A DNA stretch of 64,000 nucleotides from contig OZ244960.1 in assembly GCA_965222605.1 (NCBI GenBank), positions 5,568,001 to 5,632,000 on the forward strand, in the 5' to 3' direction. This document shows positions 32,193 to 34,255 of the stretch, in pieces. This DNA comes from Candidatus Latescibacterota bacterium (GTDB lineage: Bacteria > Latescibacterota > UBA2968). Under the pieces are notes generated by a model. It was not told the origin of the DNA, did no database searches, and was given only the letters and a program-made list of their open reading frames with translations. The number at the start of each line of letters is the position of its first letter. Position 1 is the stretch's first letter. Position numbers and translations under genes: made by a program.

Positions 32193-32993
32193 ATGAGAAA
32201 AATGTACTGGACAGACTTGGGAGCTTCTAAAATTCGGTGTGCAAACTTAGACGGTTCAGATGTCAAAGACCTCGTTGCTACTGGATTGCGTATTCCAAAT
32301 AGCATCGCCATAGATGGGGACGAGGGGAAGATGTACTGGACGGACGCTGGGACGTCCAAAATTCAGCGTGCAAACCTGGACGGTTCAGATGTCGAAGACC
32401 TCATTACTGTCGATGTGTATCTTCCAGGTGGAATGACGGTGCATGGAAAGAAAAAAAAAATCTATTGGACAGACGCGGCCTGGGGAGAGACCGTGGAGTG
32501 CAAAGTACAACGAGCGGACCTGGATGGCTCTCATGTCGAAACCCTCGTTTTCACCGAATTGAGTATTCCTAACGGTATCGTCTTGGATCTGGACATGGGT
32601 AAGATATACTGGACAGACTTAACTAAAATTCAACGTGCGAACCTGGATGGCTCTCATGTTGAAACCCTCGTTATCACCGAATTACTGCCATTGGGGATTG
32701 CCTTAGACGTGGGTGAAGGGAAGATGTACTGGACGAACTATAAGGGTGCTGGCGTGTCTAAAATTCAACGTGCTAATCTGGATGGTTCAGATGTCGAAGA
32801 TCTCGTTACTGTGGGATTGGATCGGCCATCGGGGATTGCTTTAGATGTCGTCAAAGGGAAGATGTACTGGGGGGACTATGACAACTATGGAACGTCTAAA
32901 ATTCAACGTGCTAATCTGGATGGTTCAGATGTCGAAGACCTTGTCACTGTGGGATTGGATCGGCCCTCGGGGATTGCCTTATGCTGCTTCTAA
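32193..32993 (+). CDS. LDL-receptor class B (YWTD) repeat protein
   Basis: Six KMYWTD..KIQRANLDGS-type repeats. Confidence 0.85.
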   Translation: MRKMYWTDLGASKIRCANLDGSDVKDLVATGLRIPNSIAIDGDEGKMYWTDAGTSKIQRANLDGSDVEDLITVDVYLPGGMTVHGKKKKIYWTDAAWGETVECKVQRADLDGSHVETLVFTELSIPNGIVLDLDMGKIYWTDLTKIQRANLDGSHVETLVITELLPLGIALDVGEGKMYWTNYKGAGVSKIQRANLDGSDVEDLVTVGLDRPSGIALDVVKGKMYWGDYDNYGTSKIQRANLDGSDVEDLVTVGLDRPSGIALCCF

Positions 32994-33012
32994 TATCTCA
33001 CCTTTTCATGGG

Positions 33013-33041
33013 TTGACTTTCGCCTTTGCATGCGCTATATT
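33013..33041 (+). promoter_or_regulatory. Sigma70-like promoter of the candidate ncRNA
   Basis: TTGACT-17 bp-TATATT. Confidence 0.65.
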
Positions 33042-33046
33042 GGAAC

Positions 33047-33297
33047 CACACAAGAAAGGAGGTGGTCGAATGAGTGAAATGACCAGTGGAGGTGGCTGTC
33101 GTTAGGTGCGCCTCTGCCAGGAGCGGGGTATAGCATCTCGAATGGTAGCGCACCTGGCAATCCAAGACAGCCATCGATCGGTTTGTTATCTGCCACATTG
33201 GCGATTTTTTGATAGTCGCGAGGCAGAGACTCCCGTCAGACGATGCGCCGCACGGAGATGGGTCGGTTTTCCGACACCCGACGTGTGGCGCTTTTTT
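33047..33297 (+). ncRNA. Candidate structured RNA with an 11-codon ORF
   Basis: Promoter, several long stems and terminal hairpin plus T6; no long ORF. Confidence 0.5.
33245..33297 (+). terminator. Intrinsic terminator
   Basis: GCGCCGCACG...CGTGTGGCGC followed by TTTTTT. Confidence 0.7.
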
Positions 33298-33414
33298 GTG
33301 GGCTTTCTAACTTGACAAAATTGGATTATACTGTACCTTCAAAGGCTTAAAGATTTCAGAATCAGGAGAGGAGGTGAGCGAATTGCGCCGTAACCATGCG
33401 GCGCGATTGAAACG

Positions 33415-33846
33415 ATGATGACACCGAGTGCCAAAAAAGGCGATGTTGAACAAACCTGGTATGTCGCCGATGCAGAAGGCAAGGTGCTGGGGCGATTTGC
33501 CAGTGGCGTTGCCAAAATTTTGCGCGGCAAACACAAGCCTTTTTTTACTCCCCATGTTGATACAGGGGATCATGTGGTTATTGTAAATGCCGAAAAGATT
33601 CAGGTGAAGGGCAATAACAAAGCCCAGCAAAAGGTTTATACGAGCTATAGTGGATATCCCGGTGGGCTTAAGAAGCAAACGCTGGAAGACGCGCTGGAAA
33701 AGCGCCCCACGTTTGTACTCGAGCACGCGATTCGGGGCATGTTGCCTCACAACAAATTGGGGCGACAGATGATCAAAAAGGTCCGTATTTACGCCGGACC
33801 AGAGCACCCACACCAGGCTCAGTCACCTGAGCCTATTGATTTATAG
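33415..33846 (+). CDS. rplM: 50S ribosomal protein L13
   Basis: WYVADA, LRGKHKP, DTGDHV. Confidence 0.97.
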   Translation: MMTPSAKKGDVEQTWYVADAEGKVLGRFASGVAKILRGKHKPFFTPHVDTGDHVVIVNAEKIQVKGNNKAQQKVYTSYSGYPGGLKKQTLEDALEKRPTFVLEHAIRGMLPHNKLGRQMIKKVRIYAGPEHPHQAQSPEPIDL

Positions 33847-33859
33847 AGGAGGTGATTGT

Positions 33860-34255
33860 TTGGCAGTTGAACCACTGAGTTCTGCTACGGGGCGTCGCAA
33901 AACATCGACAGCGCATGTGAAACTTTTTCCCGGAACGGGGTCGATTGTGATTAATGGGCTTTCCGCGCTCGATTATCTCAAACGGGAGACATTGGTGATG
34001 ATTATCGAACAGCCCTTAGATGTGATCGAGGCCCGAGGGACTTATGATATTGTTGCCAAAGCAAAGGGTGGCGGTTTGACCGGTCAGGCCGGTGCCGTGC
34101 GATTGGGTATTGCGCGCAGTTTGCAGCGCGTGAATACGGGCAATCACAGACCCCTGCGACAGGCGGGCTTGCTCACGCGCGACCCGCGCAAAGTGGAGCG
34201 CAAAAAACCCGGGCAGCCCGGAGCACGCAAAAAATTCCAGTTTTCCAAGCGTTAG
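33860..34255 (+). CDS. rpsI: 30S ribosomal protein S9
   Basis: TGRRK, GGGLTGQAGA, QFSKR; TTG start. Confidence 0.97.
   Translation: MAVEPLSSATGRRKTSTAHVKLFPGTGSIVINGLSALDYLKRETLVMIIEQPLDVIEARGTYDIVAKAKGGGLTGQAGAVRLGIARSLQRVNTGNHRPLRQAGLLTRDPRKVERKKPGQPGARKKFQFSKR

Follow-up and report, generated by a model that had tools for sequence, protein, structure and literature searches.

The DNA analysed here, called the window throughout, is a 64-kb stretch from the 6.34-Mb genome of Candidatus Latescibacterota bacterium GCA_965222605.1 (contig OZ244960.1). Positions 33013-33297 of the window are an independent small RNA (sRNA) gene with its own promoter and terminator. On its sequence and predicted fold, this element is classed as a divergent Latescibacterota member of the known Ms_IGR-5 family. 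The family itself is already catalogued in Rfam; what is new is the phylum in which it occurs. The RNA carries a complement of the 3' end of 16S rRNA directly ahead of an 11-codon open reading frame (ORF), the end of which runs into a long stem, P2. It is proposed, with a probability of roughly 55%, to be a ribosome-engaging RNA on which a 30S subunit would dock, translate the mini-ORF and unzip P2.

Assignment to the Ms_IGR-5 family

At the Rfam gathering level, nothing was returned for the whole window. A permissive scan matched RF02471 (Ms_IGR-5, "Actinobacteria sRNA") over its full model (1-184) at 33048-33198, with 38.7 bits and an E-value of 2.4e-7, and this element was the sole RF02471 match in the genome. 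At E <= 0.01, matches were found in 39 of 41 genomes of the same order, all but one singly, and one of these scored 46.6 bits, above the cut-off. The relation is reciprocal, given that a model built from 19 Latescibacterota sequences only (R1) found a single match in a complete Nocardioides genome (G152, C1:990499-990630; 37.3 bits, E 1.4e-5), at which RF02471 scores 125.9 bits. The initial annotation had regarded the element as unassignable to a known family; a described Rfam family was found to match, and the claim of novelty therefore falls.

Likeness to RF02471 extends to the motifs and their order. In both, ACAC..GAAAGGAGGUGGUC on the 5' side is followed by GAGGUGGCUG with a stop codon just behind, and both have a stem closed by CAGYCACC and an AAUYC loop. 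The latter two belong to the shared blocks CUGGC(G)AAUYC and CAGYCAYC, which lie outside the pattern used to collect further loci. Both are also single-copy and intergenic. However, the element belongs to Ca. Latescibacterota, whereas the family was described from Actinobacteria. Its stop codon lies 4 nt and not 5 nt after the motif, which yields TSGGGCR instead of ..REVAxx, and it has an extra hairpin (P3) and a long terminator. It adjoins rplM, whereas actinobacterial copies sit behind a class-IV aminotransferase gene, and the structure line of the Rfam model departs from the P1/P2 fold supported by covariation. Thus, it is the reciprocal matches together with the shared motifs and fold that led to the element being filed as a divergent RF02471 member despite its sub-threshold score.

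Ms_IGR-5 was reportedly first described by Li et al. in 2013 from Mycobacterium smegmatis, in a pull-down with a foreign Hfq. No functional study of the family was found in the literature searched, and strings of the anti-16S sequence returned fish and zebrafish primers only.

Several other candidates were set aside. Four further weak matches of the permissive scan (two CRISPR repeat models, dauA and mir-223; E 0.14-8.8) were taken as chance, and weak RF02471 matches seen in Caulobacter and Thermus when E was allowed to reach 1 were gone at E 0.01. A second RF02471 match in one genome of the order (L027; G039:C1:4400352-4400529, 30.4 bits) was dropped as unrelated, having no anti-16S tract; it was the only 1 of 70 sources unmatched by R1 and was not recovered by nhmmer. 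L027 ends in a clean terminator-like hairpin and probably represents either a chance match or a small structured RNA unrelated to the family. ARAGORN found no tRNA or transfer-messenger RNA (tmRNA) gene in the window, and there was no Rfam match to tmRNA, 6S, signal recognition particle RNA or RNase P, either at the gathering level in the whole window or in the permissive scan of the locus. Likewise, the Rfam L13_leader (RF00555) was matched neither at the gathering level in the whole window nor on 32900-33450 with E values of up to 10.

An independent transcription unit

The initial annotation had described a stand-alone structured RNA of ~250 nt. Its features (promoter, anti-16S tract, ORF, stems, terminator and the TTGACA at 33312) were all recovered where it had placed them, and the existence of a separate promoter and terminator, together with the stability of the fold, bears out the description. 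Two Shine-Dalgarno (SD)-like tracts are distinguished below as SD1 and SD2, and the mini-ORF is termed the short ORF (sORF).

33013-33041, + strand: sRNA promoter, with -35 TTGACT at 33013-33018, a 17-nt spacer and -10 TATATT at 33036-33041; 10/12 in a consensus scan
33048-33297, + strand: predicted sRNA transcript of ~250 nt, its start near 33048 being deduced from the position of the -10 and the first model position
33049-33088, + strand: P1 hairpin, with outer stem 33049-33051/33086-33088, inner stem 33063-33067/33081-33085 and the start codon in the loop
33053-33067, + strand: SD1, the anti-16S tract AGAAAGGAGGTGGTC, of which 33053-33062 form the 5' bulge of P1
33070-33105, + strand: sORF MSEMTSGGGCR*, 11 codons, with ATG at 33070 and TAG at 33103-33105
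33088-33095, + strand: SD2, the second SD-like tract GGAGGTGG, ending 7 nt 5' of the stop codon and overlapping the 5' strand of P2a
33091-33175, + strand: P2 long stem, composed of P2a (33091-33099/33167-33175), P2b (33101-33110/33149-33158, with the stop codon) and P2c (33116-33119/33143-33146); apex variable
33159-33163, + strand: conserved AATCC motif, in the internal loop that separates the 3' strands of P2b and P2a
33180-33204 with 33216-33234, + strand: P3 hairpin, variable and lineage-specific in sequence, aligned within the order
33245-33297, + strand: intrinsic terminator, with stem 33245-33291 and T-run 33292-33297, from minimum free energy and consensus folds
33312-33339, + strand: separate rplM promoter outside the sRNA, with TTGACA at 33312-33317, 16 nt and TACCTT at 33334-33339

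The hairpin that the initial annotation had placed at 33189-33227 is the inner part of P3. The order as sampled comprises two families (f1 and f2), and counts of relatives refer to aligned loci of this order. Both hexamers of the sRNA promoter are unchanged in 29/29 relatives, while the spacer between them varies. The matches of RF02471, of R1 and of a second model (R2, see below) share 33048 as their first position. The entire 285-nt unit, promoter through terminator, can be aligned in 29 of 30 relatives' loci, the exception being L027. The fold of a 253-nt stretch has an energy of -108.5 kcal/mol (z = -4.77), equalled by 0 of 200 shuffles, and the T-run behind the terminator stem is present in the 23 aligned relatives.

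The promoter of rplM lies behind this terminator. Its TTGACA is unchanged in 14/14 aligned spacers from the two families, with a -10 resembling TAYCTT/TATTCT, and the consensus scan did not call it because this -10 is weak. In two relatives (L006 and L025), insertions of ~70 and ~170 nt separate the sRNA terminator from the rplM promoter.

Conserved fold and motifs

The initial annotation had proposed that homologs be collected and tested for covariation, and the outcome favours a conserved fold. Within the order, compensatory changes occur at 17 pairs over P2, P3 and the terminator (RNAalifold on a MAFFT alignment of 23 relatives), including 8 pairs in P3 and 8 pairs in the terminator stem. 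Across 69 sequences of other phyla, pairing holds in 90.9% of cells, compared with 69.9% in shuffles and 28-39% for slid structures, and changes on both sides are seen at 31 of 34 pairs. The outer stem of P1 is 97% paired in these sequences, with CG/AU/GC/UA exchanges; the inner stem is lower, at 79%, because of an alignment offset in Actinomycetota. P2a is 96% paired with double changes at 8/9 pairs, and P2b is 90.5% paired with double changes at 10/10 pairs.

Across phyla, the 5' side of P1 bulges out GAAAGGAGG, and the start codon sits in the loop of this hairpin. P2a is formed by GGUGGCUG with CAGYCACC, and P2a and P2b together enclose the stop codon. The motif (G)AAUYC(C), which was not part of the scan pattern, is present in most of 26 representative rows from several phyla; the AAUYC loop is missing from short Planctomycetota and some Acidobacteriota forms.

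SD2 forms a duplex of -15.0 kcal/mol with the 16S tail. Its motif GAGGTGRCTG is unchanged in 29/29 relatives save for a covarying G/A, and throughout the family a GAGGUGG-type second SD-like tract lies 8-10 nt 5' of the stop. Outside the relatives, the conservation of SD2 reflects the way in which loci were chosen, because GAGGTGRCTG was part of the scan pattern. The stop codon starts 3-6 nt after the SD2 motif in 118/118 distinct sequences.

A conserved mini-ORF with a variable peptide

Both the extended anti-16S tract and the mini-ORF described in the initial annotation proved real and conserved in 29/29 relatives, the start, stop and 36-nt length of the sORF being kept in each. Among 118 distinct family sequences, 109 have an in-frame ATG, GTG or TTG 4-16 nt after GGAGG with no intervening stop, against 22/118 and 0/118 in the control frames. 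Of the nine sequences lacking a canonical start, eight are Acidimicrobiia-type and all have an in-frame CTG at the equivalent position. These loci (L039, L046, L057, L096, L110, L122, L126 and L129) carry GTC-NNN-CTG in the frame of the stop codon, suggesting that the sORF is initiated at CTG in this lineage. The stops are TAG in 98, TGA in 7 and TAA in 4 sequences, and the sORF ranges from 11 to 17 codons across the family.

The peptide itself varies. Most sequences have the stop at offset +5 and read ..EVAxx*; Latescibacterota and Eisenbacteria have it at +4 and read ..SGGGC(R/S)*; and Planctomycetota have it at +3 or +6, with a ..RWL.. reading. Thus, because the distance from the RNA motif to the stop differs, three frames are used on one and the same stretch of nucleotides. 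Within the order, the sORF is invariant over its 3' half, third codon positions included, while the L13 protein encoded by rplM falls to 72% identity, which argues for constraint on the sORF sequence at the RNA level. Selection therefore preserves initiation, frame and termination, and the peptide is not conserved.

The anti-16S tract

The sequence AGAAAGGAGGTGGTCGA occupies 33053-33069, immediately 5' of the ATG at 33070. The single 16S gene detected in this genome ends in ...GGATCACCTCCTTTCT, and 33053-33067 can pair with this tail over 15 contiguous positions (14 Watson-Crick pairs and one G-U) at -26.4 kcal/mol. The initial annotation had reported a 15/17 anti-16S match, far longer than a normal SD sequence. 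The match is borne out by the genome's own 16S tail; the length is not unusual, given that the SD sequences of rplM and rpsI are also long, at -22.4 and -20.4 kcal/mol with the 16S tail.

Exact GAAAGGAGGTGRTC occurs at two places in the genome, namely in this element and, in antisense, at the end of the 16S gene. If up to two mismatches are allowed, an anti-16S match in the 64-kb window is not rare by chance, since 23 of 100 shuffles yield one. Within SD1, GAAAGGAGGTGGT is unchanged in 29/29 relatives. SD1 is unusual for its invariance across phyla and not for its length as such.

A search for an internal anti-SD or pseudoknot partner of SD1 was negative, the longest complement 3' of SD2 averaging 5.22 nt compared with 5.27 nt in shuffled sequences (77 sequences). 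The CAUCUC in the P2 apex, invariant in the order, could pair with GAGGUG.

It was also observed that ribosomal-protein genes of this genome carry extended SD sequences of the AGAGGAGGTGA type (33838-33862 and 33360-33380 of the window), with energies of -20 to -22 kcal/mol. Long SD-anti-SD pairing therefore seems to be a general habit of highly expressed genes here.

Distribution and genomic context

A pattern scan with AAGGAGGTGGT-N12-40-GAGGTGRCTG, taking one genome per species, gave at least 120 loci. Among those listed, ~100 are from Actinomycetota and 20 from other groups, comprising Latescibacterota (2), Acidobacteriota lineages (8), Planctomycetota (4), and Zixibacteria, Sumerlaeota, Eisenbacteria, Syntrophobacter, a 'Deltaproteobacteria' metagenome-assembled genome (MAG) and a 'Heliobacteriaceae' MAG. 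Genome samples were then scored with R2, a model from 77 sequences drawn in part from the surveyed lineages, under strict filters, such that an unmatched genome need not lack the RNA:

Ca. Latescibacterota, own phylum: 53/151 genomes
Own order, family f1: 29/29 genomes
Own order, family f2: 18/19 genomes (order total 47/48)
Largest sister family of the phylum: 1/64 genomes
Actinomycetota: 72/151 genomes
Acidobacteriota: 11/101 genomes

The Actinomycetota matches include all six genomes flagged as unpublished, and the tally without them is 66/145. Nearly every R2-positive genome has one copy.

The neighbouring genes differ from lineage to lineage. rplM lies 90-300 nt downstream of the element in 27/29 relatives' loci; of the other two, one contig ends too early and one locus has no rplM. 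Among the loci listed from the pattern scan, rplM is nearby in 2 of 120, both of them Latescibacterota. In Actinomycetota, the RNA lies downstream of a class-IV aminotransferase gene, with a converging THAP4-like heme-binding gene, and GCV_T and rhodanese genes are nearby. DAHP synthase is found at 3 Planctomycetota loci and an OPT transporter at 2 Blastocatellia loci, and other neighbours outside the order include a dehydrogenase, GH116, kinases and a NUDIX protein. Clustering of the neighbours over the listed loci yielded lineage-specific synteny only and no conserved protein partner.

On the other side of the sRNA promoter, the upstream ORF (32193-32993, + strand) encodes repeated ..KIYWTD..IQRANLDGS..VE.LV.. 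units, resembling a YWTD / LDL-receptor class B beta-propeller. Its 3' end varies in length in relatives' RNA-library contigs, with joints skipping ~160 nt. Downstream, rplM has a strong SD sequence GGAGGTGA (33370-33377), followed by a TTG at 33383 that opens an 11-codon upstream ORF (uORF). The TGA of this uORF (33416-33418) overlaps the rplM ATG (33415-33417) within a hairpin GCGCCG..CGGCGC, which is also the site of a weak CRISPR-DR9 match. In four relatives (L004, L006, L013 and L020), the uORF insert of ~30 nt is missing and the SD sequence directly precedes the rplM ATG. The uORF may serve translational coupling or may be a lineage-specific insertion.

Expression evidence

Expression of the family has been recorded in actinobacteria. 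The Streptomyces lividans member is reported as validated by RNA-seq (PMC8079986), the Streptomyces avermitilis member as an sRNA transcription unit (PMC8780764), and ribosome-protected reads are described on family members in Mycobacterium abscessus and M. smegmatis (PMC4974804).

For the present lineage, 16 RNA-recorded runs include part of the stretch. Four runs from four studies were examined, and in 4/4 RNA-library contigs cover the element. In one (X2), short contigs over 33003-33245 have a depth of 467-1384 compared with 129-166 on rplM/rpsI, a pattern that hints only weakly at a discrete, abundant RNA because contigs are blind to ends, strand and level. In the other three, a single contig spans the element into rplM. 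Coverage gaps occur at 32862-32969 in runs X2 and X3.

Proposed mechanism

The proposal takes as its ground the family relation, the separate transcription unit, the covarying fold, the conserved start, frame and stop, the non-conserved peptide and the complementarity to the organism's own 16S rRNA, all of which are observed. From these we infer that a 30S subunit docks on the RNA, that the sORF is translated in this organism and that the ribosome pauses at the stop codon, together with any effect that this may have. The RNA would begin at ~33048 and fold into P1, which would expose AGAAAGGAGG as a bulge and present the start codon in its loop. A 30S subunit would then pair its full free 16S tail with 33053-33067, the inner stem of P1 would melt and AUG 33070 would enter the P site. 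Eleven codons would be translated, the identity of the amino acids being presumably irrelevant (11-17 codons across the family), and translation would open P2, since the end of the ORF is the 5' strand of P2.

With UAG in the A site, SD2 (GGAGGUGG) would lie ~4-6 nt behind the P-site codon, near an initiation-like spacing, and the folded P2 apex would be at the mRNA entrance. This spacing and the position of the apex suggest that the ribosome is likely held at the stop, leaving the conserved 3' strand of P2 (CCUGGCAAUCC...ACAGCCAUC) single-stranded. The RNA would thus exist in two forms, closed and ribosome-opened, whose ratio would report ribosome availability.

Programmed pausing and frameshifting offer a parallel. 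Both prfB and dnaX use an internal upstream SD-like tract, and dnaX adds a downstream hairpin. The element likewise places an SD-like tract a short and constant distance 5' of its decoding site, with a stable stem immediately 3'. However, it has no slippery sequence or extended frame, and its decoding site would be the stop of an 11-17-codon ORF.

A number of points weigh against this proposal. The element scores below the Rfam gathering cut-off (38.7 vs 45 bits), and highly expressed genes of this genome, rplM and rpsI among them, normally have long SD sequences. The distribution is patchy, as the largest sister family and Acidobacteriota illustrate, which argues against an indispensable role, and the RNA is not known to have a trans target, a partner protein or a phenotype. 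Transcript support in this organism consists of RNA-library contigs, and in three of four runs these are contiguous into rplM. Furthermore, the argument for pausing at the stop is one of geometry only. The cross-phylum pair counts come from an alignment fitted to the model, and loci outside the order were selected by a pattern containing SD1 and SD2, so their conservation there is partly by construction.

Alternative explanations

One alternative is a pure decoy or sponge, in which the RNA would withdraw or reserve 30S (or 70S) particles through the 16S tail and the mini-ORF would merely let ribosomes run off. The SD1 duplex is the strongest tested and unique in the genome, its sequence is invariant across phyla, and both the ribosome-protected reads reported in PMC4974804 and the greater depth over the element in run X2 would agree with this, contig depth being a poor measure. 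However, a sponge encoded by a single-copy gene would have to approach the ribosomes in copy number, and neither the fixed geometry of stop, SD2 and P2 nor the kept start codons, including the Acidimicrobiia CTG, would be explained. A sponge is therefore considered unlikely. It also seems improbable that the element is a base-pairing sRNA whose 5' end is guarded by a bound 30S, the effector being a downstream single-stranded seed. This idea draws on STAB-SD of the Bacillus thuringiensis cry3A mRNA, described in PMC4113751 as an almost perfect match to the anti-SD end of 16S rRNA, close to the 5' end of the transcript, that is thought to hold 30S and that blocks RNase J1. SD1 similarly lies 5 nt from the predicted 5' end, and AAUCC and other motifs are kept outside the ORF. 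However, STAB-SD is by definition non-initiating and belongs to an mRNA leader, whereas the element is a stand-alone RNA in which a start codon 7 nt after GGAGG, the frame and an in-frame stop are conserved. Furthermore, RNase J (TIGR00649) was not above its cut-off in this genome (best 37.5 bits vs 400), and no target is known.

The initial annotation had also raised the options of a leader and of a micropeptide, and both are unlikely. A leader is disfavoured because rplM has a separate conserved promoter after the terminator and unrelated genes adjoin the RNA outside the order. In its fullest form, a cis-acting attenuator of rplM-rpsI, translation of the mini-ORF would decide between termination at 33245-33297 and read-through. 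An sORF followed by a terminator is the classical attenuator layout, as in the trpL, ermCL and topAI uORFs, where the peptide is mostly irrelevant and translation remodels downstream pairing ahead of an intrinsic terminator; rplM also follows closely in nearly all relatives, and single contigs cross into it in 3/4 runs. Yet the invariant TTGACA past the terminator and the 70-170-nt insertions in two relatives separate the two units, the next gene converges in Actinomycetota, and the rarity of rplM beside pattern loci leaves no conserved controlled gene. No convincing alternative antiterminator was seen by inspection, there being ~5 complementary bases between the P2 strands and the terminator, and the L13-leader search was negative. 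Unlike leader-type systems, the Ms_IGR-5 family is free-standing in every phylum examined. Control of this kind is thus judged very unlikely. Least credible is that the product is the 11-residue peptide MSEMTSGGGCR, with RNA structure only tuning its synthesis. The ORF does keep its start and stop, and TSGGGC(R/S) is invariant within the order; however, the invariant codons are fixed at third positions too while the rplM protein diverges, and different phyla encode different peptides, since the frame is not fixed relative to the conserved RNA motifs, the same motif giving ..REVAxx* in Actinomycetota and ..RWL.. in Planctomycetota.

Implications for the family

The Ms_IGR-5 family is wider than its name implies, since this locus and the pattern scan extend it to Ca. 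Latescibacterota and at least seven other phylum-level groups. The Rfam model and name are too narrow for annotation, because this copy is missed at the gathering threshold. What selection preserves is a set of signals to dock, start and stop a ribosome on a structured RNA, and not a peptide.

A bolder and rather doubtful extension of the ribosome-engaging proposal is that the family forms a multi-phylum 'ribosome-parking' class. In such a class, the ribosome would be loaded via the entire 16S tail and clamped at the stop between the SD2-anti-SD helix and the hairpin in front, and the opened 3' strand or the occupied ribosome would read out or regulate the free ribosome pool. If true, the RNA might shift the balance between SD-led and leaderless translation or check the mature 16S 3' end. 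In any case, an RNA that is free-standing, single-copy and organised around a complete complement of the 16S tail is a candidate for regulating or sensing the translation machinery, an idea that is open to test in culturable actinomycetes.

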